Below, piece after piece: positions 21,943 through 47,883 of a DNA stretch of 64,000 nucleotides. The position numbers and the translations under genes are program-made. Positions within the stretch are counted from its first letter, which is position 1; each line of letters starts with the position of its first letter. The DNA comes from Phycisphaerae bacterium (GTDB lineage: Bacteria; Planctomycetota; Phycisphaerae; Sedimentisphaerales; Anaerobacaceae), in NCBI GenBank assembly GCA_030601745.1, contig JAUWBI010000002.1, positions 16,770 to 80,769 on the forward strand, read 5' to 3'. The notes below the pieces were generated by a model. It was not told the DNA's origin, ran no database searches, and saw only the letters and a program-made list of their open reading frames with translations.

Positions 21943-22031
21943 ACTGTCATTTTGCGACAGTTTTATTAACTTAGCTTGCAATATATGCCGATATGTTATA
22001 TAATTGCCAGTAACTGTCATATTTCGACAGT
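21943..22031 (+). promoter_or_regulatory. abiE promoter with two operator-like inverted repeats
   Basis: IR1 is ACTGTC-ATTTTGC-GACAGT (21943-21961) and IR2 is ACTGTC-ATATTTC-GACAGT (22013-22031). Between them lie TTGCAA (21976-21981), a 17-nt spacer and TATAAT (21999-22004). The start codon is at 22058. Confidence 0.6.
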
Positions 22032-22057
22032 ATAGTAAGCAAAATGTTGGTGTGGCT

Positions 22058-23977: not shown

Positions 23978-24063
23978 TGAGGTTTGTGTGAGCTTGCTTT
24001 AAACGGCATAAGTCCGGCAGAATAAGCAGCTTACCGCATATTACAAAAGAAAGGAGGATGGTA

Positions 24064-24816
24064 ATGATGTACACACGAGCAATAACAATGGTGATTTTGT
24101 CGTTAATTATGATTAGTCTAACAGGTTGCTTTTCGTCCCGGGCTGAAGACATAGAAGCATTTCTAAAGCCCCACGAGGTAGAGGTAATTGCCAAAAATTA
24201 TGTTTTGCACCCGCCGGATGAAATTGAGGTATTATGCTCAAAGGTGCCGGAAATCCATTTGCAGCGTCAACAAATTCGGCCAGATGGAAAAATAAGCTTC
24301 GAGGCTTTAGGTGAGATAGAAGCAGCGGGCAAAACACCGGGACAAGTTGCAAAACTGCTGCAACAGAAGGTATCCCAGCTTTATACATTGGCGGGAGACA
24401 ATCCCATCGACGTACGTGTTGTAACATATCGAAGCAAGACGTATTACGTCCTTGGTGAAGTAAGTTACCCAGGTCCTAAGATCACTACGGGACGAGATAC
24501 AGCTTTGAGGGCATTAGCGGAGGCGAGGCCTACAGTTCTGGCATGGAAAGGCCGTATCCAGATAATAAGGCCGTCGGGTGATGAGAGTGTCAAATCTAAA
24601 ATTTTTGAACTGGACTTTAATCGCATGATAGCTCACGGCGATATGAGCAAAAATGTTCTACTGCAGGAAGGTGACATAATATATGTGCCACCAACCGTGT
24701 TGGCCGCTATAGGACAGACGGTAGAGGAATTAGTACGACCAATCGGCAGCGCTTTCTCGACGGTATATACCGTACAGCGAGCGCAAGTAGGTGCTCGTGG
24801 ATATGGCGGATACTAA
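24064..24816 (+). CDS. Wza-like polysaccharide export lipoprotein (Poly_export + SLBB)
   Basis: The ORF track starts at 24058. AGGAGG ends at 24057, so the ATG at 24064 or 24067 fits better. The lipobox is LIMISLTGC. Family-like sequence includes ...IRPDGKISFEALGEIEAAGKTPGQVAKLLQQKV...YYVLGEVSYPGPK...LLQEGDIIYVPPT. The protein ends in ...GARGYGGY. Confidence 0.85.
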   Translation: MMYTRAITMVILSLIMISLTGCFSSRAEDIEAFLKPHEVEVIAKNYVLHPPDEIEVLCSKVPEIHLQRQQIRPDGKISFEALGEIEAAGKTPGQVAKLLQQKVSQLYTLAGDNPIDVRVVTYRSKTYYVLGEVSYPGPKITTGRDTALRALAEARPTVLAWKGRIQIIRPSGDESVKSKIFELDFNRMIAHGDMSKNVLLQEGDIIYVPPTVLAAIGQTVEELVRPIGSAFSTVYTVQRAQVGARGYGGY

Positions 24817-27111: not shown

Positions 27112-27753
27112 TCATAACGCTCTGCGTCTCCGCAGCCAGCCGACAAGGACTACACCGACGCTGCCAAGCAAAATGGCTCCTGGTGCGGGGGTGACCGTGG
27201 TCATAGTGCCAGTCAAGCCATCACTGTCAGCAATGCCAACATCAATCGTATCCTGGATGTACATACTGCTTAGGATGGTCAGATTGAAATCCAAGCCGTA
27301 ACCCGCCGCTGCAATAGCATCCAAGATATCCGAGCCGATAGTGTTCGTAACAGTAATGTTCGTGATGTCGGCTCTGATTTCGGTGTAGGCCACACCAGCA
27401 GGCCCGACAGGCACCAAATCACCTATACCAAGTGCACCATTCAGAAGGACGTTGCCAGCGGCATCTCTAATCTCAATGGAGCTGACAGGCGTCAGTAAGT
27501 AAGGACCGCCAGGTGTACCAGAGACTAACAAATCGGGGATGTACACAAAGCCTGCGCCAACCAGTGTATCAGTGGTGCCGCCCAGTACCCTGTTAACAGG
27601 AATTGTTTGAGCAAAAGAGAATATTCCTGCCACAGGACCGCTTGGCGTGTAGCTCCAGCCACCTGTACCAGGACTGAATTCCATAGTTGGAACCGCCAAA
27701 GCAGGTGTCCCAATAAACACCGCCAGAATAATTATCGAAATCCATTTTTTCAT
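27112..27753 (-). CDS. PEP-CTERM sorting-domain protein (exosortase cargo)
   Basis: 213 aa with signal peptide MKKWISIIILAVFIGTPALA. The C-terminus TPAPGAILLGSVGVVLVGWLRRRRAL has the motif, TM and basic cluster. Confidence 0.85.
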   Translation of the reverse strand: MKKWISIIILAVFIGTPALAVPTMEFSPGTGGWSYTPSGPVAGIFSFAQTIPVNRVLGGTTDTLVGAGFVYIPDLLVSGTPGGPYLLTPVSSIEIRDAAGNVLLNGALGIGDLVPVGPAGVAYTEIRADITNITVTNTIGSDILDAIAAAGYGLDFNLTILSSMYIQDTIDVGIADSDGLTGTMTTVTPAPGAILLGSVGVVLVGWLRRRRAL

Positions 27754-27821: not shown

Positions 27822-28529
27822 TTACAGTGTTCTTCTCCTTCGCAACCAGCCGACAAGGCATACGCCAATACCGCCCAGCAAAATAGCGCCTGGAGCAGGA
27901 ATCCACGTGACGTCATGGGAGCCGGGGTTAATATCCCAGCTGGTTTTCCATTTGTGGTCAATGCCACATATTTCAAGGCCGTACATATCAAAGTGCACCC
28001 ATGTGAACCCACTTACTTCAACCCAGTATTCCTTAATCTGACCGTAGGTATTGGTCGACCCTATGACGCCATTGTCCGCATTGTAATCGTCAATTTTATC
28101 ACCCACGTTGGCGAAAGGGTCGAGGTCATAAATAAGAAAATCGGAAACATCATCTTTCAAGGGATAGTGGTTGTTGAAGTTCGCTCCACTTGGGAAAAAC
28201 GACGTGTCGCTGTAGCTATCAATAAACGTAGGGTCAGAAGTGCCTGAGCCTGGTAAACCTGTAATCAAAATAGTCCCCGTTTCACCATCGGGAACGGAGA
28301 TAATCAACGTCACGTCGGTCAGAGCGTCGACGTTGGTGTGATATGCACCGATAGTCCACAGTTGAAAGGGGTTGTCAATCACGAACCAAGTATCCTGATC
28401 CTCATAATAATCGCCTGCGTAGAGGTAATCCGGGCTCCAAACCTGAAACGTAGGCTGGGCCGATGCCGGTTGGCTCATAAGCAGCAACAAAGTAACAACT
28501 ACCACAATTGGTATTTTTAAAACCTTCAT
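27822..28529 (-). CDS. PEP-CTERM sorting-domain protein (exosortase cargo)
   Basis: 235 aa with a signal peptide ending ...SQPASAQP. The C-terminus is IPAPGAILLGGIGVCLVGWLRRRRTL. Confidence 0.85.
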   Translation of the reverse strand: MKVLKIPIVVVVTLLLLMSQPASAQPTFQVWSPDYLYAGDYYEDQDTWFVIDNPFQLWTIGAYHTNVDALTDVTLIISVPDGETGTILITGLPGSGTSDPTFIDSYSDTSFFPSGANFNNHYPLKDDVSDFLIYDLDPFANVGDKIDDYNADNGVIGSTNTYGQIKEYWVEVSGFTWVHFDMYGLEICGIDHKWKTSWDINPGSHDVTWIPAPGAILLGGIGVCLVGWLRRRRTL

Positions 28530-29709: not shown

Positions 29710-30150
29710 TTACTGAGGAGTAGATGAATTGTTTTCTTTTTTGAGTGTCTCGACGGAGGGAGGCGTTTTTCCGGTTGGTTCCTCTGCGTCTATAGTGTGA
29801 ATAGGCGCAGTACTATTAGCTTCGCGGGACAACTGGCCTGCATTCTCCATACATCTTAACAGCATCGTGACCTTGTTCCTTACGCGGGTCTTTTGAAAAA
29901 TGCTTCTCAAATGCGTTTTTACAGTCCCATGCTTGACGTTTAGCTTCTCGGCGATGTCTCCGTTGGTAAAGCCCTGGCAAACAAGCTTAACTACCTGAAG
30001 CTCTCTTGGACTGATGTGATAATACCTCTGGATATACCGCCACTGCTTTTCATCAAGTAAAATAGCTTTAGGCCGACCGTAAAAAGAGTCACCGGGACTG
30101 CTGATATTTTCTATTTTGCTTTCCTCTTCTGGCTGTAATGATGAGGACAT
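29710..30150 (-). CDS. LuxR/GerE-family HTH regulator (EpsA-like position in an exosortase locus)
   Basis: Start taken at the ATG at 30150, 1 nt after the TAG of the TPR gene. The motif is ISPRELQVVKLVCQGFTNGDIAEKLNVKHGTVKTHLRSIFQKT. Confidence 0.8.
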   Translation of the reverse strand: MSSSLQPEEESKIENISSPGDSFYGRPKAILLDEKQWRYIQRYYHISPRELQVVKLVCQGFTNGDIAEKLNVKHGTVKTHLRSIFQKTRVRNKVTMLLRCMENAGQLSREANSTAPIHTIDAEEPTGKTPPSVETLKKENNSSTPQ

Positions 30151-30151
30151 A

Positions 30152-33100
30152 CTAATTCCCCTGCGATAATTCATCAAGGAGACGTTGCATCTCCTCTGTA
30201 TCTGCGGTGGATAAACCCCCAATTTCAGCATTCAACTCTAATGCTTTGTTTAAGTTTTCAATAGCTTCGTCTTTTTGCTCCAGGCTCGCTAAGGCCTTTG
30301 CCAAATGGAAGTATGAAGCTGCTGCTGCAGGTGTTCCTCCGGGATACAATCTTATGCATCTCGTAAAATCCTGAATCCCTTTATCAAATTGACCGAGTCT
30401 GTAATACGCGACTCCGCGGGTATCAATGAGGTCAACGTAGTTAGGGGCGATTTCCAAACCTCGCTGGGCAAGCTCGAGCGCCTGTTGATGTTTGCCTTGC
30501 TCTTCACAAAGTGTCCAGGCCAGATTATTGATGGCGACTACGTTATCAGGTTGAAGTTTGAGAATGCGCTCATAAAGTTTGGCTGCTTCTTCAGGACGGC
30601 CGGTCATTTGCAGCAGCATAGCAAGCGAGCCCATTACTGGGAGAGAATTGGGGTCGCGGGCCAGGATTCTGCGAAATAAATCTTCGGCTATTTTCTTAGC
30701 CTGGCTGTCTTCAGTGGCCGCCAAATCCGCAGCAATAGCAACGGGCGTGTAAGTATCTTTTGGGTGATTCTGGCACCAATTGACGACCTTCTGGTTTAGC
30801 TGGCTCCAGAGCTTGTCGTCCTTGAGTAGCTGGGCTTGCGCCAATAGTGGAGCTGGGGCATCCGGTGCAGACTGATACAACGAGTCAAATATCTTTTGAG
30901 CCTCTTCCTTGTTGCCATTTTTGTACAACGCGACGGCCAGAGCGATGTTGCATCTGTGGCGAGCTGAGGCATCACACATATCCAGTTGTTTTCTCAGCAG
31001 GGTCACAGGTTTTTCGGTTTCACCTATTTCAATATATGTTCTGGCCAGGAGCAGTACAATATCAACATCGTCTGGATACAGTTCGTGCAAAAGCTTGAGG
31101 GTAGGAATCGCCAAGAGCGGTGACCGCTCTGCTTCGGCCCGAGCCTTCAACAAAAGTAGCCGCCTATCGTTGGGTGTATGCACAAGGCCCCGCAAAGCAA
31201 TATCTATAGCTTTCCCAGGCTGTCCCTGCCTCAGCGAGAGTTCTCCCAGCAGAAGCCAGGCATCACTGATTTTGGCCTGGTCTTCGGTTATCTTCTGGAG
31301 AATCTGCACAGCATTTTCAATCGCCGGAGCAGTTCCTTCGGCAAGCAGTGAACGAGCTTTGTATAGGCGCAGCTCAGCATCCTCAGGATTTGCCGTAAGG
31401 GCTCCATCAAGGATGGTTTTTCCCTGAAGGACTCTTTCGGGACTGCTGGATGCTAAAAAGAGCAAAATAGCGCGTTTTTGGATTTGGACGTTACCCGGGG
31501 CTATAGATAGTGCCTGTTGTATATCAGCGATCGCCTTATCTGGCTGGCCTATGGAACGGTAAAAGTTACTTTTGGCCACCCACGCTTCGACACTATTTGG
31601 TTCGGAAGTTGTGGCGTGCTCAAAATCTTCTACTGCCTTATTGGGGTCACCAAGGGAAGCGAATGTTCTGGCGCGAAGGATGTAAGCCGACGCGTTGTTA
31701 AGGTTGTTTATTAGCTCATCACATAGTGCGATTGCTTCGGCAGATTTTCCTTGACGAACGTTCAATTCCACTTGAGCAACTGCTACTTGCAGCGAGTTGG
31801 GGTCCTGAATTTCTAACTTGTCCAGTAACTCACCTGCCTCGGCAAACTTATTTTGCCACATCTTGATTCTTGCAAGAGACAAGAGGACAGTGAGGTTATT
31901 AGGGTCGTCAGTTAATAAGTCCTCCAGAATATCGCTGGCAGGGTCCAATTCGCCGCGTCTAAGGTAACTTTGTAATTCCCATTTTTTTAGTTCGGGGTGG
32001 AATAGCTTTTCGCCGGCTGCTCGCTGAAGAATCTCGTCTGCACGCTCGCTCTCGTTTGCCTTATATAAAGCAGCAATAGTAGGAACGATTATGCGAAGGT
32101 CCTGGGGCGAACGATCGTAAGCCTCGCGATAGGTCGAAATCGCAAGCTGCAACTCGCCGGCTCGTTCGTAGGCTGCTGCGAAAAGCATTCGGCTGGTTTG
32201 GTCATTCGGATTAGCAAGCAGATTTTCTTTAAGAAGTGAAATAATTTGCGGATACCGGTTTTTGAAATTGTCCTCTGCGAACCAAATTCTTGCCTGCTCA
32301 TACCGCCACTGCCAACCCTCCTCGCCTTCAATTGTCTTAATTCTGTCGACGAGTTGTTGAGCCCGGTCGGAGTCTTTTATCACTTTCTCACATCTTAAAA
32401 GCCCGCGTTGGACAAGAATGTCGTCCGGGAGGTCGAGAATGAGCGAATTGAGGAACTGGTAGCGTTTTTCTTGCTCGTTCCAGCGATTATAAAAGCCAGC
32501 CAGGAGCAAACCCAGTTCCCTTTTGGCGACAGGCTGTTCTATGCGAGTTAAAGCATTTTTAATAATCTTTTCACACTCTTGAGTCTTACCTTCTGCTGCT
32601 AATAAAATAGCGAGGTATCTTACGAAGCTGATGGATTCAGGGAATACTCTAATAGCATCATATAATTTTGCTTTCGCTTCATCGGTTTTGTCCTGAGCGG
32701 TTAACAGTTCAACCTCTGCCATAGCAACTTCCATACGAGAGGGGTAGCTATTCTTCATTTCTTCCAGCAACTGCTGAGCTTTGCTGAACTGAGACCGCAA
32801 GAACGCAAGCTGAAGCTGCGAGGCCTTAACTGAAAAGGCATTATCAGAGGCTTTTTCCAGGGCGGCCAGGCGGTCTTCTATATCCTGCCACATTTGGGCA
32901 TTTTCGCCTGTTGGGCGTGCCGCCAACAGTTGCATCCGGGCTTGAGTATGTAGTAAGGCCACATCGAGACTGTTCGGAGAAATTTGCCTGGCCATTCGGG
33001 CTTGTTCTGCTGTCTCGGCCCAGTTTCCGGTCTGAGCCAACAGCCTGGCAAGGGCTAAGCGTCCATTCAAGAAATCAGGCCACTCAGAGACCAAAGTACG

Positions 33101-34327
33101 TAACTGGCGCAGTGCCGATTGTGTGTCACCTGAACGAGACAGAGTTGATGCCAACGCTAATCGAACTCGTGGGGGTAGGGGTTTATTACCTAATTGTATT
33201 GCCAGGCGAAAGCATTTGGCGGCCTCAAACAGGTGCCCTCTTCTATCGGCCAGAAGACCTTCCAAGAATGCAGTAGTTGCGGGGGCAATATCTTTTTGGC
33301 GTAGTTTGGAAATACAGTCGCCAGCACGGTCAAGCTTGTCGCATCTGATATATAACTCCGCGGCGGTCGGCATAAAATCCCAGGGTTGAGCAGAAAGCTC
33401 TTTTAATCCGGTTTCGGCAACTTTTAGCATTGTTGCTTTTGAGTTTGATTTCAGCGCGAGCATCGTCCAGACTCGCCAAAGGTTCTGGCTTGTTGGCTCA
33501 GCCATTTGCACAGCCTCAAGGTGTTTTTCTGCCTTGTCGGAGACGTTTGCGCTGATAAATTCCCCTGCGAGGCGTAGCCGTACGATAGGGTCAGATAAAT
33601 CCAGCTTTTCGGCCTGCTCCAGGTCAGCTAAGGCTTTGGGTCTATCTTTGCTTCTCAAATGAAAGGCGGCACGGATTATGTACGCCAAAGGCGAGGACGG
33701 ATTATTTTTTATCGCTTCATTAAACAAGTCAGCAGGGGCGGCTGAAAAATCTTCCGGGCGTTGCTCTGTGAGTTGCCCTAATATTTCGTAGGCTAATATC
33801 TGCTCAGGATGTTCCGCTATGATGTTCTTCAATTCCGCCGCTGCTTCATCGAACTTTCGTTGTCTGGCCAGTGCCACGGCCAACATCCTGCGAAGCTCAG
33901 GATCCTGGTTTGTTTTAAGGTATGTTGTGGCAATCAACTCGGCCTCGCCGGGCATACGCATCTCTAAATACAATTCAGTAAGTTTCATAGCGGCTTCGGA
34001 ATTGTTTTTGTCCTCTCTCAAAACGATTCGGTAAGACGCTATAGCATGTTGAAGATTGTTGCGTTTGAGAGGCCTGATGTTAAGGTGCGCATCGGCATAT
34101 TTGAGCAGTATTGGCACGTCGTCGTGCTCAACAGCGAGATAACGGCCCAGTTGGCTTGCCGCTTCTTCGTACCTATGCTCGTTATATGCCTTAATGCCAG
34201 CCTCAAGTCCCAACTCGGTTCTGGTGCTTCTTCGCCATTGGCGCAGTCCGAAAGCAGTCGCGCCCAAAACAACAAGACCGATTAGCAAAACAATTGCTAA
34301 TTTCCAGTTAAAATATCTTCTTGGCAT
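30152..34327 (-). CDS. Membrane-anchored 1391-aa TPR-repeat protein (PrsT-like, PEP-CTERM system associated)
   Basis: N-terminal TM WKLAIVLLIGLVVLGATAFGL. TPR-type A/L/Y-rich 34-aa periodicity runs throughout. Confidence 0.8.
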   Translation of the reverse strand: MPRRYFNWKLAIVLLIGLVVLGATAFGLRQWRRSTRTELGLEAGIKAYNEHRYEEAASQLGRYLAVEHDDVPILLKYADAHLNIRPLKRNNLQHAIASYRIVLREDKNNSEAAMKLTELYLEMRMPGEAELIATTYLKTNQDPELRRMLAVALARQRKFDEAAAELKNIIAEHPEQILAYEILGQLTEQRPEDFSAAPADLFNEAIKNNPSSPLAYIIRAAFHLRSKDRPKALADLEQAEKLDLSDPIVRLRLAGEFISANVSDKAEKHLEAVQMAEPTSQNLWRVWTMLALKSNSKATMLKVAETGLKELSAQPWDFMPTAAELYIRCDKLDRAGDCISKLRQKDIAPATTAFLEGLLADRRGHLFEAAKCFRLAIQLGNKPLPPRVRLALASTLSRSGDTQSALRQLRTLVSEWPDFLNGRLALARLLAQTGNWAETAEQARMARQISPNSLDVALLHTQARMQLLAARPTGENAQMWQDIEDRLAALEKASDNAFSVKASQLQLAFLRSQFSKAQQLLEEMKNSYPSRMEVAMAEVELLTAQDKTDEAKAKLYDAIRVFPESISFVRYLAILLAAEGKTQECEKIIKNALTRIEQPVAKRELGLLLAGFYNRWNEQEKRYQFLNSLILDLPDDILVQRGLLRCEKVIKDSDRAQQLVDRIKTIEGEEGWQWRYEQARIWFAEDNFKNRYPQIISLLKENLLANPNDQTSRMLFAAAYERAGELQLAISTYREAYDRSPQDLRIIVPTIAALYKANESERADEILQRAAGEKLFHPELKKWELQSYLRRGELDPASDILEDLLTDDPNNLTVLLSLARIKMWQNKFAEAGELLDKLEIQDPNSLQVAVAQVELNVRQGKSAEAIALCDELINNLNNASAYILRARTFASLGDPNKAVEDFEHATTSEPNSVEAWVAKSNFYRSIGQPDKAIADIQQALSIAPGNVQIQKRAILLFLASSSPERVLQGKTILDGALTANPEDAELRLYKARSLLAEGTAPAIENAVQILQKITEDQAKISDAWLLLGELSLRQGQPGKAIDIALRGLVHTPNDRRLLLLKARAEAERSPLLAIPTLKLLHELYPDDVDIVLLLARTYIEIGETEKPVTLLRKQLDMCDASARHRCNIALAVALYKNGNKEEAQKIFDSLYQSAPDAPAPLLAQAQLLKDDKLWSQLNQKVVNWCQNHPKDTYTPVAIAADLAATEDSQAKKIAEDLFRRILARDPNSLPVMGSLAMLLQMTGRPEEAAKLYERILKLQPDNVVAINNLAWTLCEEQGKHQQALELAQRGLEIAPNYVDLIDTRGVAYYRLGQFDKGIQDFTRCIRLYPGGTPAAAASYFHLAKALASLEQKDEAIENLNKALELNAEIGGLSTADTEEMQRLLDELSQGN

Positions 34328-34401: not shown

Positions 34402-36096
34402 TTAGAACTGGCTGACGAAATTCTTGACTAGTTTCGTGGCTGTTTGCCAGCATATCCATAAGTCCATCTTTAATGACAGGTCTCTGACATATTTGGTGTC
34501 GTAATGTATCCATTCCTGAAAGTCTTTCATCGGCTGGCGGGTCCTACAAACCTGCCAAAGTCCCGTGATACCCGGCCGAACCGAGAGTCGGGCGTCACGC
34601 CAGGACGGACACAGTGTATTTTCCGATTCGGGAGATGGTCTTGGACCAACAACACTCATCTGACCAAACAGAACATTAAAGAATTGAGGTATTTCGTCGA
34701 TATATGTGTCTCGCAAAAAACTGCCGATGGTACTAAGACGCGGGTCATCCTCCATTTTGAATTGTGGGCCGTCAACCTGACTGATGGTTCTTAGTTTATC
34801 CTGTATCTTATCAGCCCCCACGAGCATAGTTCTGAACTTCAGACAACTGAATGCTTTGCCGTGCAGTCCCTGTCGGGTATCTTTGAAGAATACCGACCCC
34901 CGAGAGGTTAATTTAATAACCAAAGCAATTATCGGAAGAACAGGTGCAAAAAGAATCAGCACGGTTATAGCTGCAACAATATCAGCAATTCTCTTAAAGC
35001 ATCTGGTATAGGAAATTCTCGGCCAACCGCGGAAAGTGTCGTTAGCACGTTGTTGGTGGTTTAAATCGAACTTTGGGTAGCAAATTTGCTTTGAATTATT
35101 GCTTTTGTATCGAGTTAGGCGCTTCCAGTTGCATTGTGGTCCTTTTACAACGCGGTTTTGGATAAGTTGATTCTGCGGCACGCAAACTCCCGGGCCAATG
35201 ATTGATGAATTTATAACGGCAGAAGTGCCAATCCTAACGTTATTACCAATAATGGTTGGGCCTACTATAATTGCGTTTTGACTTATACTAACGTTTCGCC
35301 CAAACAATATTTTGCCAAACAATCTTGCGCTGTCAGATATTGTGATATTGTCTTTATCCAAGATTTCTGTCCGAGATTTATTGTTTGTATTACGATGATT
35401 CTGCACCGAAGAGTTGAGCTTGGTTGCAAGGAAGCTAAGCAAACCCGGCTCTGTTTCCAAATCCAATACAGTACCTCCGACACTAATCGCTCGCAGCGTT
35501 AATGCATTCGACCGACATCTTTTTAGAAGAGCGGAAAAAGATTGAGGTAAAGCACGGTCGGCCAAGACTTGGTCAAGAACATTAGTCTTAACAAAGATAT
35601 GATGAGGCCAATCGGTAGGAACAGGTGCAGGTTCAGCGGAATCAGAGTACAGCCGACGGAAACCTGCTACCTTGCCCTGGGCTGTCAATCGCACTTTATC
35701 TCGTTTGCCCAGCAATCCAGGTTCGACATTAACCGCTACCACATCCGCCTGGATGCCAGCCAATACTTTATGGAGCAATTCACCATCAACCTGAGTTGCA
35801 AATCGACCATCGGAAACAATGAGCCATGAGGTTCGTCTGGTTTTCCGCAGAAGCTCAGAGCAGATTGGGACGTTTTTTGTATAAGCTATCATCTTTGGTA
35901 TCGCTGCGCGGGTTTCAATGCTCCATCTTTCTGGAATGGCGACCGCAGCATTTGTATCGCCGTCCAAGCATAAATGTTTGCTTAATCCATCGAGAACAAC
36001 ATCGCCGATAGGCTCGCTGGAAACAGCAAACCGAAGCAGGTCGTTACCGTCACTGGCTGCGGAGTTCCTGTTTTTATGTATGATAATCAGGTTCAT
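34402..36096 (-). CDS. Priming polyprenyl-phosphate sugar phosphotransferase (Bac_transf) with N-terminal degenerate nucleotidyltransferase-like + left-handed beta-helix module
   Basis: 564 aa. The C-terminal part reads ...KRIADIVAAITVLILFAPVLPIIALVIKLTSRGSVFFKDTRQGLHGKAFSCLKFRTM...DEIPQFFNVLFGQMSVVGPRP...RPGITGLWQV. Hexapeptide-like repeats lie at aa ~255-330 (ISQNAIIVGPTIIGNNVRIGTSAVINSSIIGPGVCV). Confidence 0.85.
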   Translation of the reverse strand: MNLIIIHKNRNSAASDGNDLLRFAVSSEPIGDVVLDGLSKHLCLDGDTNAAVAIPERWSIETRAAIPKMIAYTKNVPICSELLRKTRRTSWLIVSDGRFATQVDGELLHKVLAGIQADVVAVNVEPGLLGKRDKVRLTAQGKVAGFRRLYSDSAEPAPVPTDWPHHIFVKTNVLDQVLADRALPQSFSALLKRCRSNALTLRAISVGGTVLDLETEPGLLSFLATKLNSSVQNHRNTNNKSRTEILDKDNITISDSARLFGKILFGRNVSISQNAIIVGPTIIGNNVRIGTSAVINSSIIGPGVCVPQNQLIQNRVVKGPQCNWKRLTRYKSNNSKQICYPKFDLNHQQRANDTFRGWPRISYTRCFKRIADIVAAITVLILFAPVLPIIALVIKLTSRGSVFFKDTRQGLHGKAFSCLKFRTMLVGADKIQDKLRTISQVDGPQFKMEDDPRLSTIGSFLRDTYIDEIPQFFNVLFGQMSVVGPRPSPESENTLCPSWRDARLSVRPGITGLWQVCRTRQPMKDFQEWIHYDTKYVRDLSLKMDLWICWQTATKLVKNFVSQF

Positions 36097-36166: not shown

Positions 36167-38572
36167 TTAGGAGTCAGAATCGTTGGTATTACCCTCCTGA
36201 CTCTGCATAGGGAGCAGCAGCTTTGCGGTGGCTCGCTTGGCGTTTTTCCTCGAGCGGGCGTTCTGTGCGTAATAATTGTGACCATAACGGTAGTAGCTAT
36301 GACCAGCCTCGACATTACTTAGAACGGTGCCAAGCACATTTACATTTATTTGGGCGAGTTTTTCGCTCGCCTCTCTAAGGTCCGGAGCGGTAGTTTGACC
36401 GGCGAAGCTGACCAATATGACCGCATCTGCAATCTTGGCCCACATCAAGGCGTCAGGAAAGGCCAGCACAGGAGGACTATCAATAATCACGTGGTCGTAC
36501 TTTTCGCTGATTGTATTTATGTACTGAGCCGTCAGAGGTAAAGCTAATAGTTCGTAGGCATCACCCCTATTGCGAGAATCCGCAGCAAGTACATCCAGGC
36601 CAGTTGAAGGCATAGAGCAAACGACCTGGTCAAATTTTCTTCCGAAAAGTATATCTTGCAAGCCCCTTGAGCCTTTTGGAAGATTCAACAAGTGCGCAAT
36701 ATCAGGTTTTCTCAAGTCACCGTCTATTAGCAGAACTTTTTTCCCTGCTCTGGCCATACTTGTTGCCAGATTAATGGCAAAAGTAGTCTTGCCTTCCTGC
36801 ATCCCCGGGCTTGTAACAACCAGCTTTTTTGGCATTTTGTCGCCGTTAAGCAGCCGTAAGTTCGCACGAATAGTCTGGTAGTCTCCGGCTATCTGTCCCG
36901 GGAGAAGAGCTGCCTTGATGGTGTCTGAACTGGTGGTAGTCCCGATTATTCGGATACCGATGCGTTTAACCACATCGTCAGGTGTACGCAAGCGAAGGTC
37001 TGCTTTGTCTCTCAGGAAAGCCAACAGCATTCCGCAAGCCATTGCGCCAAACATAAGGGCCATTGTGTATTTGATACGCTTATCCCGGACAGAAGCGACG
37101 TCGGCATTATAAGCGACGATAATCCTTGCAGGACGCTTTCGTTCCATTTCCAGTTCTTCTATGCGCCGGCCGATTCTCTCATATGTTTCCTTGATCAAAG
37201 ATAGTTCATCCTGCAATTCCTCTATATCCAGTTGTCGAATACCCTCAACAATGGTCTCCGTATCCTCCTCAGCGAGCATATCCTTAAACCGCTGTTCTAA
37301 CGCCCTTGTTAGTTCCAACTCATGCTGTATATTAGCCAGTTCGTTTTTCGCGTTGAGCAGCTTTTCTTTTTCCGCCTCAGCAATGTTTTTAGCCATGAAA
37401 TCATCATACATTTCACCCACTTCCGTCTTACGCTGCTCAATACGTTCTTTCAGTGCTTTTATCACATCAGCTCTTTCCTCAAGTTCCGGATTTGTTGGTG
37501 CCAATCTCAGCCTGGCAACGATAAATTCTTGTTCTAACTGTGCGAGATTTGCTATGAAAGTATTGAGGGTTGGGTCGGTATTTATATAGCTGCGGCGCGT
37601 CGGATCATTGTGGTCTGTGGCCTGTTCCACCTCAGCTGCTAATTCGTCCCGCTCTATGGGCTGTTCTTTCTCATTTGCATCGGGCGATTCTAACCTATCT
37701 TTTAGCACCTCCACCTGAGCCTCCAGGTGAATTCTACTTGCCTCCCATTTAGTAAATTCGCTGAGCAGCATTCCAACACGTTCCAACTTTATTTGTTGAC
37801 GTTTGTCCAAGGTGGTCGACGATTTGGACCCAAACTCTTGTGCCAAGGCGTTGATTTCTTTACGCTTGTTTTTCAATTTTACGGCCAGATCCTTTTGCTT
37901 GTTTACCAACGCAGTCAATTTTTGCCCCTCCTCCTTGCTGGAACTGTCAACTTCGACGGCCATATAGGCATCAATAAAAGCGTCTACAATCCGCTTTGCT
38001 TCTTCTGAGTTTGTACTTTTCATAGTTACCTTTATTAGCTCGGTACGGCGACCAGGAGCAGCACTGATGACACCATTGGATATCGCTTGTTTCAATATGC
38101 TTGCCGGCTCGGGCTTTGCCTTGGTGTTCTTTAGTGTCTGTTTTAGCTTTGTGACAAGCCCTGTGGGCTCATTTTCAAAGTAGGCTAGGTTTTTGTCTGC
38201 TAAATCGGTTGCTACTCTTTGCACCACCTGGCTGCTGGTAATCATTTCTGCCTGAGTATACATAAAGCTTTGATAAGATATTCCTCCAGAGTCTGCTTCG
38301 CCGGTCCAGATGTTTTCTAAAATAGGAGCAACCCTTATTGCGCCGGTTACACTATACAGAGGCTCGATCGAAAGCCATATTGCAGGGATTCCCGTTGCGC
38401 ACATTACAAAGAATATCAGCAGCACAATGTACCAGCGTCGAAGTACACCCTTAATTAGATTGGATGTGGAATGACTGTCAGATTCAGGCAGCATCTCAAA
38501 ATTAGCAGGCCTATGTTCAATTACCTGACCATTATATTTTTCTAAATCGCTCATTTTTTGGTTTTCCTCCAT
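36167..38572 (-). CDS. Polysaccharide co-polymerase (Wzz/GumC-like) fused to BY-type tyrosine autokinase
   Basis: 801 aa with two TMs flanking a long coiled coil. The Walker A is VVTSPGMQEGKTTFAINLA. Also present are ...LLIDGDLRKPD..., VIIDSPPVLAFPDA and a C-terminal Tyr cluster HSYYRYGHNYY. Confidence 0.9.
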   Translation of the reverse strand: MEENQKMSDLEKYNGQVIEHRPANFEMLPESDSHSTSNLIKGVLRRWYIVLLIFFVMCATGIPAIWLSIEPLYSVTGAIRVAPILENIWTGEADSGGISYQSFMYTQAEMITSSQVVQRVATDLADKNLAYFENEPTGLVTKLKQTLKNTKAKPEPASILKQAISNGVISAAPGRRTELIKVTMKSTNSEEAKRIVDAFIDAYMAVEVDSSSKEEGQKLTALVNKQKDLAVKLKNKRKEINALAQEFGSKSSTTLDKRQQIKLERVGMLLSEFTKWEASRIHLEAQVEVLKDRLESPDANEKEQPIERDELAAEVEQATDHNDPTRRSYINTDPTLNTFIANLAQLEQEFIVARLRLAPTNPELEERADVIKALKERIEQRKTEVGEMYDDFMAKNIAEAEKEKLLNAKNELANIQHELELTRALEQRFKDMLAEEDTETIVEGIRQLDIEELQDELSLIKETYERIGRRIEELEMERKRPARIIVAYNADVASVRDKRIKYTMALMFGAMACGMLLAFLRDKADLRLRTPDDVVKRIGIRIIGTTTSSDTIKAALLPGQIAGDYQTIRANLRLLNGDKMPKKLVVTSPGMQEGKTTFAINLATSMARAGKKVLLIDGDLRKPDIAHLLNLPKGSRGLQDILFGRKFDQVVCSMPSTGLDVLAADSRNRGDAYELLALPLTAQYINTISEKYDHVIIDSPPVLAFPDALMWAKIADAVILVSFAGQTTAPDLREASEKLAQINVNVLGTVLSNVEAGHSYYRYGHNYYAQNARSRKNAKRATAKLLLPMQSQEGNTNDSDS

Positions 38573-38668: not shown

Positions 38669-40660
38669 TCACCGTTTTTGCCGTGCGATTATTACTGCTT
38701 CTTCTTTCAAAGGAAGCGTAGTAAGTTTTGCTAAAAGCCAAAGCTCAGTAACTACCGTTGCAAGGGCCAACGGCATCATTGCATAGCCCCCAAAATCGTG
38801 GAATATTTTCTCCCAATGCTCGCCGCTGAGCACTGTAAAAGCAAGTGCTGTGATTGTTAATCGCAGTGTGTTACAAAGTAGAGCAACGGGCAGGCTTGAT
38901 GCCAGGACGATGAGCTTTTCCCACCATGCTCGCCTGACCAGTAAGACAACCAAGCCGCTAATCACGAAAAAGGCGGTGATCATTCTCAAGCCGTTGCAGG
39001 CCTCGGCGACTGCGACGGTTGCCTGGCCGATGTGGATAACATTGCCTTCCTGCATGACCTCATAGCCCATCACCTCCAGGCAAAAAACGGCTGATGAAGT
39101 GGCCCAGCGCTGTAGAGGCAGCGCCACAGCGGCCTGGATTCGGTTGGGCCAGGGCAGCATTAAGCACAGGAACAGTAATACCGTAGATAGTTTTAGGAAA
39201 AGCCGCCAGCCAAACAAAAGCAGTACTAATGCAGCAATACTTAGAACAACAGACAAGTTTTCTGCTGAACTATACATATCGTACAGTCCGAATAGCCTGA
39301 GGCCCTGTGCCGCTAAGAAGGCAAATAGACCCCAAATAGAAGGCCTGATGCGGCACTGAGCAATATCATGTCGCCTTGACCACAAGATGTAGACAGCCAG
39401 AAAAGGAACCAAAAGACCGCTGGAATATTCATCACTTCTTTGCCATACATTCCAAAGGTTCATAAGACCGGGCCAGTAAGACCATAGAAAAGCAACTAAA
39501 AGAAGACCGGCTGCAAACCATGGGACCATCTTCGTCTTGTGCGCTTGTACCCAATCTGGCAATTTTCTGTTAAGTTTACCGAGTTGTAGTTGTAACGCGT
39601 TACCGAATCCGCTCGCGTTATTTTTCGCAACCTTTAATGCGCTGCCGACCAAACTTTCCAACATTCCCTCTGGTTTGAATGGTATGGCTTTTTCTTCCAC
39701 AATGGTATTACCGCGCACGGTCGCGTGGTAGTCTATCAGGCATCGTTGAATTTCACAATTTAGGCCTACTTGTGCGCCGTCCCAAAGCACACTATTTACC
39801 ACAACACTATCCTTGCCTATGCTAACATCGCGTCCGAGTATGGTTGGCCCAAAAATCACTGCACCCTCGGAAATGTGAGCGCCATCCATAATAGCGACCG
39901 GCCCATAAATTCGCGCACTCGGGTCCACCCTCGAATTAGCTGCCGTCCATACGGCTTGTGAGTTGTTACGCTTGCAGAGTTTTAAATCCGCGTTTAGTTT
40001 TGGGGCATTTTCAAGGTAATTAGCGATGGCATACAAGTATCCTCGCCAATCTCGAAAATTTCCCACGTGATTTGGTAATACTACCGTATGAACAGTTTTC
40101 CCGGCACGGAGCATTTCAGGAATCAGGCCTTCCTTGATATCAAAGTAGCCTTCTTTTGGGATGTGTTCTAAAACGCTGGTTTCGCAAATATAGATTCCTG
40201 CTGCTTCTCCCGTCTGCTTGCCATTTCTGTGGACTGCGTTAAACACCACAGTCAAATCAGACTTACCATCGCGGTGAGCATTTATCAGCATATCGATTTT
40301 CGGGGGGCATATTAAACTGGCAGGGAATACCAGAAGTAGTGAGTCTGTTTCTCCATTGGCAGCATCACGAATACATCCTGCAGTTCCCATCGGCAACGAT
40401 TCGTCTAAAAACTTCAACTCCAACCGATTATCAGCGCGAATCGATTCAGCCAGAAACGAACCATCACTATTGTAGCAGATTACCGCCTGTTTTATGCCCT
40501 GATCGGCTAAAGATGTTAGCAGACAGCCTAAGACAGGTTTTCCCACCACCGGCCACAGGGCTGTGGGCAAATGCGACGCCAGCGGACACCGCCCGAAGTC
40601 ACGGCCGCTTACAAGGATAACAGCTTTAACATTTTGTTTATTGACAACTTGTTTATACAT
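38669..40660 (-). CDS. Exosortase (EpsH family) with N-terminal nucleotidyltransferase-like + left-handed beta-helix module
   Basis: 663 aa in one ORF. The N-terminus KAVILVSGRDFGRCPLASHLPTALWPVVGKPVL is a diverged sugar-1-P NTP-transferase signature. LbH repeats lie at aa ~255-330. The C-terminal ~280 aa is polytopic with exosortase signatures: VAEACNGLRM (Cys codon at 38996-38998), LLCNTLRL and FHDFGGY. Confidence 0.85.
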   Translation of the reverse strand: MYKQVVNKQNVKAVILVSGRDFGRCPLASHLPTALWPVVGKPVLGCLLTSLADQGIKQAVICYNSDGSFLAESIRADNRLELKFLDESLPMGTAGCIRDAANGETDSLLLVFPASLICPPKIDMLINAHRDGKSDLTVVFNAVHRNGKQTGEAAGIYICETSVLEHIPKEGYFDIKEGLIPEMLRAGKTVHTVVLPNHVGNFRDWRGYLYAIANYLENAPKLNADLKLCKRNNSQAVWTAANSRVDPSARIYGPVAIMDGAHISEGAVIFGPTILGRDVSIGKDSVVVNSVLWDGAQVGLNCEIQRCLIDYHATVRGNTIVEEKAIPFKPEGMLESLVGSALKVAKNNASGFGNALQLQLGKLNRKLPDWVQAHKTKMVPWFAAGLLLVAFLWSYWPGLMNLWNVWQRSDEYSSGLLVPFLAVYILWSRRHDIAQCRIRPSIWGLFAFLAAQGLRLFGLYDMYSSAENLSVVLSIAALVLLLFGWRLFLKLSTVLLFLCLMLPWPNRIQAAVALPLQRWATSSAVFCLEVMGYEVMQEGNVIHIGQATVAVAEACNGLRMITAFFVISGLVVLLVRRAWWEKLIVLASSLPVALLCNTLRLTITALAFTVLSGEHWEKIFHDFGGYAMMPLALATVVTELWLLAKLTTLPLKEEAVIIARQKR

Positions 40661-43377: not shown

Positions 43378-44691
43378 TTATGAAACTTCCCTAAGCAATT
43401 TATGGTCAAGCAGCACATCGGCAGCATTCTTAATAAGGTCGAAATCCAAACCTGACCTATCAGAGATATCCAGCAGGCTATGTTTGCCGTCTGACATATT
43501 TAAGACCCAAAGCAAAGGCATTTCATCTATAGGTCGTCTTTGGAGCCCACCCATCATTTCATAAAGGCCTCTTTTGCCTAACTGTACCTCCCCTTTTGGC
43601 TTTAAGTTAAGATATTTTCTGTTGTTCTCGAGCACATAAATTACCGAGAGGTACTTTTCGAATGATTCAGCGAGGTACTGGTGACGAACAACGTCAAAAT
43701 TATCTGCGGAGCTATGGTACTGGGGAAACTGGCTATGGGTGCTTCTTGTCAGGGAACCCACCGGCAGATTAAATCCGGTTGAGCAATAATTTCGCTCATC
43801 ATATCCGTATGGTGAAAAATCAATTATCTTGTAGTCACTGCCAGAAGTCCTCAGGACGTTTACAACCGCCTGGTCTATTTCTGCATCACCTCGGCGGCTT
43901 CTTTTGTATATGAAACTGCCTCGGTCACCAACACACGCGACGACCAGACCATGCTTGATATTTGAAACTTTATGCTCATTCAAACAGAGCCAAACTATTG
44001 AGCCTATGGCTCCTGGAATAAACAGAAATCTATATGAGTACCTGGGCGTGATGCTACTGATACATTTTGCGAGAAAAGTGGAAAGCACTACACCGGAAAG
44101 GTTGTCGTTACAAAGGGAAGGATGACAAGCATGAGTGGATATTAACACCTCTTCAGAATTTTGGCCCTGTATGTGATACTCGCCATAATTCAAATGACCC
44201 TCTTCCAGCGTGGAATCAATGACGACCTCATAGGTATCTTCCTTTAGCTTTAAAAAGTCGTTGTGACTTAGACAGAACCCCCAGTTTTCTTTGTAATATG
44301 AAGTCCGGTAGGGAATCCAGTCAGGATGTTCAGGCAGCGTGAAAAGATGCTCCTGGAGCTCCTTTAGCAACATTTTTCTGTTGACCGCCATGCTATAGTT
44401 GACAACGTGCAAGTTTGATTTTTTGAAATCGATTATTTTTTCGCCCTTGGAATTTTTTAGGTACGCGTTTTTAATGTTCCACTCTTTTGGCACCGTCCAG
44501 TCAAAAACTTCAGTACCACTTGGGATTGCGTGAATTTCCAAGGGAATGTGTTGCTTCAGGATATTCTGGGTTTGGCGAAAGCCTTCTCCGGTTATGCTGC
44601 GGCAAATTGGATACAGCTCTGACATCAGCTTGTGCATCTGCCTGCCAATTTCATCTATATCGATATTTCTCTTGAGGTCCGCTATATTCAT
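43378..44691 (-). CDS. DUF4910/aminopeptidase-like (M28-fold) protein commonly found in O-antigen/CDP-sugar clusters
   Basis: 437 aa. The N-terminus ...MHKLMSELYPICRSITGEGFRQTQNIL... is typical of this family. The call is from memory. Confidence 0.65.
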   Translation of the reverse strand: MNIADLKRNIDIDEIGRQMHKLMSELYPICRSITGEGFRQTQNILKQHIPLEIHAIPSGTEVFDWTVPKEWNIKNAYLKNSKGEKIIDFKKSNLHVVNYSMAVNRKMLLKELQEHLFTLPEHPDWIPYRTSYYKENWGFCLSHNDFLKLKEDTYEVVIDSTLEEGHLNYGEYHIQGQNSEEVLISTHACHPSLCNDNLSGVVLSTFLAKCISSITPRYSYRFLFIPGAIGSIVWLCLNEHKVSNIKHGLVVACVGDRGSFIYKRSRRGDAEIDQAVVNVLRTSGSDYKIIDFSPYGYDERNYCSTGFNLPVGSLTRSTHSQFPQYHSSADNFDVVRHQYLAESFEKYLSVIYVLENNRKYLNLKPKGEVQLGKRGLYEMMGGLQRRPIDEMPLLWVLNMSDGKHSLLDISDRSGLDFDLIKNAADVLLDHKLLREVS

Positions 44692-46076: not shown

Positions 46077-47102
46077 CTAACTTTTGAAGCGGAAGGTCTT
46101 ATCAAGGATACCCTCCTGCAGCAATTTACGAATATGCGCAATTCTCTTGTATCTTGGGCCTTCAAACTCTTCGAGAGTTACGCCGTGTTTCTTGTATGCC
46201 TCGTAAAGTTCCTTTGCACCCCGACGGGCATTCCATTTGGTTTGAAAGCTCGACAATACTTGAGGCAGCCGGTCACAATTGACCTTGTAGCAGCGTTTGT
46301 CCGGCGAAGCGTCTTCGGCAAATGTAACCTGACAGTTAGGTACTGTTTCTCTCACTATATTAGCAATGTCCCTGATTTGCAGGTTATCTTCGGTCACCCC
46401 CACATTAAAAGCCTGGTTGTGAATCAACTCCTTCGGAGCACCAAGCACGGCAATAAATGCAAGGGCAATATCTCTTATATGTACGATAGGTCGCCAGGGG
46501 CTGCCATCACTTTTCATCATTATCTTTCCGGTAGTGAAGGCCCAGGCAGTAAGGTTGTTAAGTACCAGATCGAAACGAAGACGCGGAGAGACACCATAAG
46601 CTGTGGCGTTACGCAGAAATATGGGCGAGAAGTTGTCATCCGCCAGAGCTGATACATCCCGTTCGGTCAAGACCTTTGATTCACCGTAAGGTGTTACTGG
46701 ATTAAACGGCGATTCTTCAGTGAGCCATTCTTCACCTCCTGCCCCATAATTACTGCAGGATGAGGAGAATACAAACCGCTCAGCACCTACACTCTTGGCC
46801 AACTCAGCCAGCCGTACCGAGGCTCGATAATTAATCTCGTATGTCAGTTCCGGATTAAAGTCGCCCAATGGGTCGTTCGACAAACCCGCCAGATGACACA
46901 CTGCGTCAAAGCCCTTTAGGTCATCAGGTTCGATATCGCGGATATCTTTTTGGATACATGGAATATTCGGGACAGCCTCTCCAAAGGTGCATTGCTTGTA
47001 AAGGTCACTGTCGAGCCCAACCACATCGTGACCTTCGGCCATTAACATCGGCGTCAGAACGGTGCCAATGTATCCGTGAGACCCTGTTACTAATACTCTC
47101 AT
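46077..47102 (-). CDS. NAD-dependent NDP-sugar epimerase/dehydratase (SDR family)
   Basis: Start at the ATG at 47102 ([31 protein letters not shown]), 4 nt after the rfbF stop. The longer track ORF, up to 47312, overlaps rfbF and is rejected. Confidence 0.85.
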
Positions 47103-47106
47103 CTTT

Positions 47107-47883
47107 TCACTCCCAAATTTTCCAGGGGGGATTTCCGTCTTGCCACATTGCGTCAAGCCGTCTTTTGTCGCGCAGTGTATCCATACATTGCCAAAATGAG
47201 GAGTGGCGATATGCCACAAGTTGGCCATCTTTGGCCAGTTGCCCCAGAGGCTTCTTCTCCCACATTGTCGTATCCCCGTCGATGTAATCGAAGACACCGG
47301 GTTCCAATACAAAAAAAGCGCCGTTAATCCATCCTTCGCTGGTTTGTGGCTTTTCGGAGAATTCTATAATCATATCGCCATCAAGATTGAGATGCCCAAA
47401 TCGGGCAGACGGTCGGACGGCCGTCAACGTGGCCAACTTGCCATGGGACTTGTGGAAATTAAGTAGATCGCGAAGATTTACATCAGAAACCCCATCGCCC
47501 CAGGTCAGCATGAATGTTTTGTCGCCCAAATACGGCGCGAGTCGCTTGATACGTCCCCCCGTCATCGTATCTCTGCCGGTATCTATTAACTCAACAGTCC
47601 AGTCTGCTTTATAACCACCACCGTCGTGAATTTCAACATCACCATTTTGCAAGTTGACCGTTAGATTGCTACACAACCGGCAATAATCAACCATGTACTT
47701 TTTGATGTATTCTCCCTTGTATCCGAGGGCGATTATGAAGTCTTTGAATCCATAATAAGCGTAGTGCATCATAATATGCCACAAGATGGGATTCCCACCA
47801 ATTTCTACCATGGGTTTGGGTTTTGTCTCAGTCTCTTCCGCCAGACGTGCCCCGAGACCTCCTGCAAGTATTGCAACTTTCAT
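47107..47883 (-). CDS. rfbF: Glucose-1-phosphate cytidylyltransferase
   Basis: 258 aa. [64 protein letters not shown]... is the characteristic RfbF sequence. Confidence 0.9.

Follow-up and report, generated by a model that had tools for sequence, protein, structure and literature searches.

What does a nucleotidyltransferase-like module do when it is joined to a membrane-embedded protein-sorting enzyme? The question is raised by a stretch of 64,000 nucleotides from a Phycisphaerae bacterium (GenBank assembly GCA_030601745.1, contig JAUWBI010000002.1, positions 16,770 to 80,769), which is referred to below as the window. At 38669..40660 on its minus strand, the window contains a single open reading frame (ORF) with an ATG start that codes for a 663-aa protein, in which a nucleotidyltransferase-like fold and a left-handed beta-helix (together, the N-module) precede an exosortase domain of the EpsH type. 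An original prediction, made from the nucleotide sequence without database searches, had described such a two-part ORF of 663 codons; the ORF listing and the Pfam and NCBIfam domain matches bear this out and add the strand. A 100% identical database entry (P0001) lies on a 93,983-bp NCBI contig. All coordinates below are window positions on the minus strand, unless marked (+).

The fused protein and its family

The whole fusion was delimited by the ORF listing, Pfam and NCBIfam. Its first part is a catalytically degenerate nucleoside triphosphate (NTP)-transferase fold of the GT-A/Rossmann-like type (aa 12-232; 39965..40627), recognized by Pfam, by an AlphaFold2 (AF2) model and by Foldseek. 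It is followed by a short left-handed beta-helix of the GMPPB_C/eIF2B-epsilon type (aa 233-326; 39683..39964; Pfam, AF2 and hhalign), by a linker of ca. 50 aa that is predicted to be helical (aa 327-377; 39530..39682; AF2 and conservation profile), and by an exosortase domain with eight transmembrane (TM) segments (aa 378-663; 38669..39529; PF09721, TIGR02602 and positive-inside count). Pfam NTP_transferase (PF00483) matched aa 12-145 with 36.5 bits (cut-off 21.2), and Exosortase_EpsH (PF09721) matched aa 389-643 with 196.3 bits (cut-off 25.7). Three beta-helix families matched aa 236-326: LbH_EIF2B with 48 bits, which is below its gathering score of 54, Hexapep_GlmU with 29.9 (above 23.3) and Hexapep with 27.2 (above 27). 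The AF2 model was built on an alignment of 105 sequences and had a mean predicted local distance difference test score (pLDDT) of 85; the N-module scored mostly 80-98 (NTP-transferase fold mostly 80-96, beta-helix 94-98), while linker residues 332-372 fell below 50 and had the lowest mean conservation of the protein.

Eight TM segments were delineated by hydropathy, in agreement with the AF2 helices. Lys and Arg residues number 7/4/2/2/4 in the cytoplasmic loops and 1/0/2/1 in the outer loops, and the end of the linker in front of the first TM segment is rich in both (seven Lys plus Arg versus one Asp plus Glu in aa 341-378). Both termini are thus predicted to be cytoplasmic, with Cys555, Arg600 and His621 at the outer-leaflet ends of their segments.

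These three residues lie in the motifs AEACNGLR (Cys555; 38996..38998), NTLRL (Arg600; Asn597 to Arg600 at 38861..38872) and FHDFGG (His621; 38798..38800), all of which are present as originally quoted. The conserved Cys, Arg and His form the putative catalytic triad of exosortases (Haft 2023 preprint), and Cys555, Asn597, Arg600 and His621 are invariant in the 105 aligned family members. The protein exceeded the cut-offs of the generic NCBIfam exosortase model TIGR02602 (149.2 bits versus 105.55) and of TIGR04178 (56.4 versus 23), and it reached the cut-off of no named class of NCBIfam 20.0, cyanoexosortases included (score/cut-off): XrtD 159/400, XrtW 150/425, XrtA 147/208, XrtV 103/313, XrtB 73/275, XrtC 51/300, XrtN 40/200 and XrtT 26/250. 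By these profile scores it is a member of the exosortase family that belongs to no named class, which agrees with the expectation of an undescribed subclass. A literature search likewise found no description of an N-terminal exosortase-nucleotidyltransferase fusion, Haft 2012 (J Bacteriol) being outside that search.

Candidate cargo was sought across the 64-kb window by a motif scan. Two ORFs ca. 10 kb from the exosortase code for proteins with signal peptides and a PEP-CTERM-type tail, [T/I]PAPGAILLG...GWLRRRR[A/T]L, in which P-A-P-G is followed by a hydrophobic helix and then RRRR. One is a secreted choice-of-anchor-N protein (27822..28529; NF038141, 103 bits) and the other lies at 27112..27753. 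Their Pfam PEP-CTERM (PF07589) scores, 14.8 and 12.4 bits, respectively, are below the cut-off of 20.7; the matches are full-profile, spanning positions 2-24 of 24 in the case of 27822..28529. The gene is best explained, from its sequence features, as encoding a working eight-TM intramembrane sorting enzyme of the Cys/Arg/His type for PEP-CTERM-type proteins.

Since an ORF that joins two known domains could arise from a lost stop codon or a frameshift between adjacent genes during assembly or gene calling, the distribution of the fusion is of direct relevance. Full-length fusions make up 114 of the best 120 database clusters, which are 68-100% identical to the window protein, are drawn from NCBI, JGI, ENA and Logan assemblies and are mostly named just 'exosortase'. 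Among GTDB species loci the fusion was found in 34 of 35, and the remaining locus does not include the upstream sequence needed to tell. An exhaustive HMMER search over 1.84 billion representatives revealed ca. 65 clusters (at 50% identity) with fusions of 590-690 aa, reaching down to ca. 30% identity, and after de-duplication there were 104 loci in which the N-module immediately precedes the exosortase domain and is encoded on the same strand. A metagenome scan with an exosortase-domain alignment yielded only close relatives (71-92% identity), nearly all fused, and no further unfused cases. Intact fusions are also present in the complete genome of a cultured bacterium, Anaerohalosphaera lusitana (WP_146663146.1; CP019791.1), and in the chromosome of a metagenome-assembled genome (MAG; CP070675.1). 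One related contig (L039; SDBT01318896.1), a 2-kb metagenome contig, encodes the two halves in separate ORFs that are 10 nt apart, at fusion-like spacing, and would be what an artefact predicts; the split there reflects a genuine recent fission or else a frameshift error. Because comparative data show the intact fusion in more than 100 independent contigs from varied samples and assemblers, the two genomes included, the artefact explanation is refuted, and we give it practically no weight. The continuity of the reading frame between the halves, on which the original prediction depended, is thereby established.

Comparison with 16 relatives gave ratios of nonsynonymous to synonymous substitution rates (dN/dS) of 0.10-0.28 for the N-module and 0.06-0.19 for the exosortase domain, and both halves are therefore under purifying selection. 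All named sources of the family belong to Phycisphaerae/Sedimentisphaerales (Planctomycetota); the automatic labels 'uncultured Pirellulales' and 'Lentimicrobiaceae' that some MAGs bear are probably unreliable. A spread throughout the Planctomycetes-Verrucomicrobia-Chlamydiae group, in which a survey had been suggested, was not borne out, the family being seen only in Phycisphaerae.

Active-site residues and ligand loops of the N-module

Foldseek comparison of the N-module with the PDB returned Thermosynechococcus tlr0611 (8x7s), Arabidopsis VTC1, human GMPPA and GMPPB, eIF2B epsilon and gamma, ADP-glucose pyrophosphorylase (AGPase) and GlmU, with E values from 5e-19 to 1e-13 and target TM-scores of 0.55-0.69. 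By sequence, the family profile matched 8x7s (E 1.6e-33) and VTC1 (E 4e-23). Residues were mapped by profile alignment to VTC1 in its native numbering (8yre_D), and motif columns were tallied in 67 diverse fusions aligned with GMPPB. In VTC1, Thr12, Arg13, Lys23, Asp111 and Asp219 are pyrophosphate-binding or catalytically critical, Glu195-Lys196 is a catalytically critical dyad, and Gly85 contacts guanine (PMC9168903).

In the window protein, the pyrophosphate-loop residues Thr12, Arg13 and Lys23 are replaced by Phe22, Gly23 and Thr33, respectively, the catalytically critical, metal-binding Asp111 and Asp219 by Ser115 and Asn201, and the Glu195-Lys196 dyad by Lys176-Glu177, its order inverted. 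The replaced pyrophosphate-binding loop, as placed by the alignments to GMPPB and VTC1, spans aa 16-37 (LVSGRDFGRCPLASHLPTALWP; 40550..40615). Its family consensus is x-D-F-G-R-C-P-L-A...A-L-W-P, and D-F-G-R-C-P is itself conserved in place of G-x-G-T-R-L. The column of the catalytic Lys is variable in the 67 fusions (R22/T10/P8/L7/A4/K4). Ser115 (40316..40318) stands in a column that is never Asp (S19/N15/A10/T6/G5/C4), and 23 shorter proteins that consist of the N-module only likewise have no Asp there. The signature that was originally called degenerate, LVSGRDFGRCPL...PTAL (aa 16-35), is thus present as quoted, and both the alignment of the 67 fusions and the VTC1 profile alignment reveal that it has degenerated in the same way throughout the family. 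This family-wide uniformity argues for the non-catalytic, ligand-binding or scaffolding role that had been suggested.

A different picture was obtained for the loops that would hold the ligand. The base-binding loop E87-x-x-P-x-G92-T-A-G95-C (40373..40402) is retained: in the 105 sequences G95 never varies, G92 and A94 reach at least 90% conservation, G92 aligns with VTC1 Gly85, and E87 aligns with an acidic residue five positions before Gly85. In the motif G-Y-F-D-I-K-E-G-L-I-P (aa 171-182; 40115..40150), which was located by conservation and by the 8yre_D alignment, D174 and E177 are invariant, and conservation is at least 90% at G171, K176, L179 and P181. The most conserved residues of the N-module (G92, A94, G95, D174, K176 and E177) lie on ligand loops.

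An internal control is provided by a canonical stand-alone sugar-1-phosphate nucleotidyltransferase of the glucose-1-phosphate cytidylyl/thymidylyl type that is encoded in the same window (47107..47883; PF00483, 61 bits) and keeps LAGGLGARL...KPKPMV, GDGV and EKP. The listed ORF 46077-47312 overlaps this gene by ca. 200 nt, and because of this overlap its true start is probably further downstream.

Because the family as a whole has replaced the residues of the pyrophosphate loop, the catalytic Lys and both Asp residues while the ligand loops stay, we conclude that the N-module is a conserved pseudoenzyme; judging from these residues, triphosphate and metal chemistry would have been lost and the base and sugar-phosphate loops kept. 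By analogy, this pattern of loss and retention is that of GMPPA and eIF2B. An acetyltransferase role for the beta-helix was also considered and rejected: the helix is of the short GMPPB_C/eIF2B type, with ca. five coils. GlmU-type acetyltransferases have a longer beta-helix and a C-terminal extension.

Possible partners and roles of the N-module

The fusion gene is the first gene of a cassette that codes for the exosortase, a Wzc-like kinase, a priming phosphoglycosyl transferase (PGT), a tetratricopeptide repeat (TPR) protein and a LuxR regulator. This order is kept in nearly all related loci that reach far enough, and also in A. lusitana, at 34% identity. Directly downstream of the fusion lies the gene of the Wzc-like polysaccharide co-polymerase/tyrosine autokinase (36167..38572; 801 aa; TIGR01007 129.6 bits, above 108; 96 bits with TIGR03018, the model of the XrtA-associated tyrosine autokinase), which adjoins the exosortase gene in nearly all related loci. 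The next gene codes for the PGT (34402..36096; 564 aa), whose Bac_transf domain was placed at aa 364-558 by Pfam and NCBIfam. Instead of an N-terminal TM bundle, this protein has a soluble N-terminal extension of ca. 355 aa with a beta-helix of its own, an architecture that is kept in 114 full-length clusters. Aa 191-319 of the PGT (35140..35526) are homologous to aa 180-311 of the exosortase (hhalign probability 99.1%, E 7e-19; BLASTP 32% identity, E 3e-10). As far as sequence comparison can demonstrate it, the homology is limited to the distal part of the nucleotidyltransferase fold and the beta-helix. Since the positive-inside rule puts the N terminus of the exosortase inside, the N-module would be cytoplasmic, on the same side as the catalytic domain of the PGT. 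Mean pairwise distances in the two soluble N-modules (exosortase and PGT) were 0.66 and 1.0, compared with 0.29 and 0.29 in their membrane catalytic domains, and the N-module of the fusion evolves ca. 2.3 times faster than its exosortase domain. The faster evolution of both soluble modules fits regulatory or adaptor domains.

The N-module also occurs on its own. Free-standing N-modules of ca. 340-360 aa keep the D-F-G-R-C, GTAG and DIKE motifs, have no catalytic Asp and, in loci L037 and L040, occupy the slot of the exosortase gene with no exosortase domain, as verified by the genes downstream. The gene order is methyltransferase, N-module, Wzc, PGT in L037, and Alg14/13, N-module, Wzc, beta-helix PGT, TPR, GerE, exporter in L040, a Sedimentisphaerales MAG whose N-module is annotated as 'NDP-sugar synthase'. 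MBN1795991.1 is one free homologue. Several other N-module representatives of ca. 320-370 aa may be contig-end fragments. A further candidate, P0201, was rejected as a split or frameshifted fusion, since its exosortase ORF starts 10 nt downstream at fusion-like spacing, and it was left out of the count of free modules.

Conversely, exosortases without the N-module were found. In L042/L043 the unfused exosortase gene, of the same clade (47% identical), is followed by Wzc and TPR genes with no PGT gene between. P0198 (L041) is located in a different context, with BlaR1-M56/EpsI and two exosortases, and says little about the cassette. P0193 (L036), which has in-frame stops upstream, is genuinely unfused, but its contig is too short to inform on context. 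By domain-wise identities, the unfused exosortases and the free N-modules nest among the fused forms. Co-occurrence was counted over 123 de-duplicated loci: the fusion was accompanied by the PGT in 70 cases and not in one, whereas unfused exosortases were accompanied by it in none and not in three.

We slightly favor, largely by analogy, a reading in which the N-module, in the manner of GMPPA, is a regulator or scaffold that connects the exosortase with the priming of polysaccharide synthesis. In this fold class the beta-helix is a dimerization surface (PMC9168903), and GMPPA, an inactive paralogue, binds GDP-mannose and uses contacts of this kind to regulate GMPPB (PMC9168903; PMC11228364). 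By the same logic, the N-module would make no nucleotide sugar and would instead serve for regulation or docking in the cytoplasm. With its retained base loop and Lys-Glu dyad it would probably still bind a nucleotide or a nucleotide sugar, and its beta-helix would dimerize with the homologous N-terminal beta-helix of the PGT, or with itself. Such pairing would place the exosortase in the machinery that starts the synthesis of polysaccharide repeat units, or would gate the exosortase by it. A docking or regulatory mechanism is favored because the analogy with GMPPA/GMPPB is joined by the operon evidence. As the PGT carries a homologous beta-helix module and free N-modules keep their slot in the operon, comparative evidence points to a partnership with the PGT and the Wzc cassette rather than to a coupling of sorting to precursor supply.

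Three other roles have to be weighed against this one. The N-module could merely homo-oligomerize or stabilize the exosortase by beta-helix contacts, with no ligand sensing and no contact with the PGT, whose own module would be independent; we regard this as an unlikely alternative. Homodimers mediated by the beta-helix are the rule in the fold class (PMC9168903), no specific co-evolution between the N-module and the PGT was seen in the mirror-tree analysis described below, and the PGT module has neither the GTAG nor the DIKE motif. However, the top conservation of the N-module lies on its nucleotide and sugar-phosphate loops and not on the surface of the beta-helix, free N-modules persist in cassettes that have no exosortase to be oligomerized, and the unfused exosortase cassette is devoid of a PGT. 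The same conserved loops would suit a feedback sensor of nucleotide sugars or NTPs that allosterically gates only the fused exosortase according to precursor level, in line with the original prediction, with no physical link to the priming enzyme. A sensor of this kind agrees with the loss of catalytic residues and has a precedent in GMPPA (PMC11228364), but leaves unexplained both the free N-module beside Wzc and PGT genes where the exosortase domain is absent and the paralogous module on the PGT; we consider it distinctly unlikely. It is highly improbable, finally, that the N-module is an active, unconventional nucleotidyltransferase that uses Arg24 and K176/E177 and serves as a local source of nucleotide-activated sugar, either for the polysaccharide or for the modification of cargo. 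The Pfam NTP_transferase match above gathering score, the conserved replacement loop D-F-G-R-C-P with its Arg and the conserved dyad would speak for activity, whereas the metal-binding Asp is present in 0 of 67 members, the column of the catalytic Lys varies, Asn stands in place of the second Asp, the N-module evolves fast relative to the exosortase domain, and the locus already encodes a canonical nucleotidyltransferase.

Several observations weigh against the docking or regulatory reading that we favor. Arg24, next to the lost Arg, might in principle compensate for it, so that residual catalysis is possible. The first ca. 190 aa of the PGT have no significant similarity to the nucleotidyltransferase core; in an hhalign comparison, the first ca. 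235 aa of the exosortase family and the first ca. 245 aa of the PGT family gave E values of 0.33 (local) and 0.83 (global). The PGT yielded a poor AF2 model (pLDDT 52), a probable consequence of an alignment confined to sequences of 61% identity or more; the Foldseek matches of this model were the same set of nucleotidyltransferase plus beta-helix proteins, with E values down to 1e-9 and TM-scores of ca. 0.3, and with a model of such low confidence they are suggestive only. In L124/L125, the most divergent fused branch, the 524-aa PGT has an N-terminal extension that is not detectably homologous to that of the window PGT, and L032 is a fused locus with no PGT or TPR gene within 10 kb. The co-occurrence loci are closely related, and there are only two independent unfused cases, one of them (L041) in another gene context; because of this phylogenetic non-independence and the small number of unfused cases, the counts are suggestive only. 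A mirror-tree analysis of six cassette parts in 45 loci gave raw correlations that were all high, with the TPR protein as the hub. The N-module and the PGT N-module correlated with r = 0.68 raw, and their partial correlation, with the other cassette proteins controlled for, was 0.08. The analysis was uninformative and was dropped as support.

In a bolder version, the paired modules would weld the exosortase, the PGT and the Wzc kinase into one inner-membrane complex, so that cargo would be cut only where and when lipid-linked precursors are made; in the extreme form, the lipid-linked glycan or nascent polymer would itself be the acceptor of exosortase transpeptidation. We offer this as a doubtful, speculative proposal. 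If true, it would be the long-sought mechanistic link of PEP-CTERM sorting to exopolysaccharide, and would present a sorting enzyme that a nucleotide sugar controls allosterically.

The surrounding locus, related systems and significance

The cassette lies at the end of a large exopolysaccharide locus of the Wzx/Wzy type that occupies 24-64 kb of the window. The locus includes genes for a flippase, a Wzy-like polymerase, GT1, GT2 and GT4 enzymes and an Alg13/14-like pair, as well as for a pyruvyl transferase, an aminotransferase, an epimerase, a methyltransferase and an acetyltransferase. The remaining cassette genes code for a 1391-aa PrsT-like TPR protein (30152..34327; TIGR02917, 305 versus a cut-off of 312; syntenic in related loci) and a LuxR/GerE-type regulator with a weak EpsA match (29710..30231; also syntenic). 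A Wza-type polysaccharide export protein is encoded at 24058..24816 (+); its match to TIGR03027, the XrtA/PEP-CTERM export protein, is below cut-off (70 bits), and the cassettes of L038 and L040 likewise include a Poly_export gene. An ORF for a 242-aa protein without a family match (28649-29377; 34-72% identity among relatives) lies downstream of the LuxR gene both in the window and in many related loci; it is an uncharacterized conserved member of the cassette.

Variants of the cassette were seen in several relatives. A separate EpsI gene is located between the fused exosortase and Wzc genes in L124/L125 (Phycisphaerae MAG JAGFJJ010000006.1), which also has a UbiA prenyltransferase gene after the TPR gene, while in L126 the separate EpsI gene comes after the TPR gene. 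L061 has ca. 3 kb of extra sequence between the exosortase and the PGT, with no Wzc match there. In L032 (CP070675.1, the Phycisphaerales bin71 chromosome), the fused exosortase is followed by a short, 451-aa Wzc-like ORF, and upstream of it lies a homologue of a window protein (43378-44691) that combines DUF4910/DUF2172 (aminopeptidase-like) with a C-terminal winged helix and is encoded in the window among sugar-modifying genes.

Other genes of the window are further removed from the fusion. Between the exporter gene and the PEP-CTERM cargo genes, 25749-26975 (+) codes for a secreted right-handed beta-helix protein (DUF1565, disaggregatase-related) with a weak C-terminal dockerin-like match, which may be a polysaccharide lyase or modifier. 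At 3633-11348, a 2571-aa protein unites an N-terminal BlaR1/M56 peptidase sensor, a SecDF P1-head and a C-terminal secretin; the adjacent gene (2147-3388) encodes a 413-aa protein with extracytoplasmic function (ECF)-sigma regions 2 and 4 and a long tail. Each of the two products ends with a Gly/Tyr-rich stretch and, after it, a near-identical tail, ...PNSPD(A/D)NSPENRP, a C-terminal tag common to a sigma-like factor and its presumed sensor. Between this region and the polysaccharide locus, 22004-23541 (+) is likely a type IV toxin-antitoxin pair: an AbiEii-type nucleotidyltransferase toxin (22693-23541 (+); PF08843, 92 bits) is overlapped by 4 nt by a small upstream ORF.

The closest known system is the XrtA/EpsH locus (Haft 2006, PMC1569441). 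It has in common with the window an eight-TM exosortase domain that bears the Cys/Arg/His signature, PEP-CTERM-type cargo (candidate cargo in the window), a PrsT-like TPR protein, a Wzc-type kinase, a Bac_transf protein, a Wza-type exporter and a LuxR/EpsA-like regulator. Unlike XrtA, the window protein scores only 147 versus the required 208 and has an additional N-terminal module of ca. 377 aa that is predicted to be cytoplasmic; its cargo motif is PAPG, not PEP, and falls below the Pfam cut-off, and no EpsI is fused. The only exosortase fusions given in Haft 2006 (PMC1569441) are of the EpsI and CAAX-protease types, which upholds the earlier statement that known fusions are EpsI-type. Like these exosortases, of which the longer XrtD, XrtW and XrtT models exemplify the EpsI type, the window protein is multi-domain; over its TM core, XrtD and XrtW score best among the named models, and separate EpsI genes occur in some family cassettes (L124-L126). 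Their extensions are C-terminal, whereas that of the window protein is N-terminal, enzyme-derived and, by prediction, cytoplasmic. EpsI is generally taken to be extracytoplasmic.

Outside the exosortases, GMPPA/KONJAC and eIF2B gamma/epsilon have the same combination of a nucleotidyltransferase fold and a short beta-helix, with catalytic residues lost and fold and ligand loops kept. Their likeness to the N-module has limits: sequence identity is only 14-21%, these proteins are soluble whereas the N-module is fused to a polytopic membrane protease, and the presumed partner of the N-module is a phosphoglycosyl transferase module and not an active pyrophosphorylase. The best match in both sequence and fold (ca. 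360 columns, E 1.6e-33; Foldseek 5e-19) is tlr0611, deposited as UTP-glucose-1-phosphate uridylyltransferase (8x7s); it differs in being a soluble, stand-alone protein that keeps Lys at the position of Thr33 and Asp at that of Ser115. A literature search found nothing on tlr0611. The catalytic domain of the window PGT matches WbaP (8t53) and PglC (8e37) with E values of 2e-44 and 1e-31, respectively, but the match is confined to aa 364-558, and the ca. 355-aa extension matches nothing in WbaP.

The fusion thus adds a bacterial, membrane-tethered case to a short list of pseudo-pyrophosphorylases that comprises GMPPA, KONJAC, eIF2B gamma/epsilon and GlgD, the last of which also gives a weak NCBIfam match. 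The family also flags an annotation problem. Its sequences are already public under generic or wrong names, free N-modules being called 'NDP-sugar synthase' and some fused records 'UTP-glucose-1-phosphate uridylyltransferase' or 'LpxD'.

That exosortases link the sorting of surface proteins to exopolysaccharide production was predicted in 2006 (Haft 2006, PMC1569441), and exosortase transpeptidation is still unproven (Haft 2023 preprint). The fusion provides evidence of the Rosetta-stone type, since a sorting enzyme is joined to a module whose paralogue sits on the enzyme that initiates repeat units. As the module also persists on its own in the same cassette, a physical or regulatory link is directly testable, with a cultured host, A. 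lusitana, available and a soluble domain of ca. 335 aa that can be expressed alone. The fusion is, in this way, a concrete handle on how PEP-CTERM sorting ties to exopolysaccharide synthesis.

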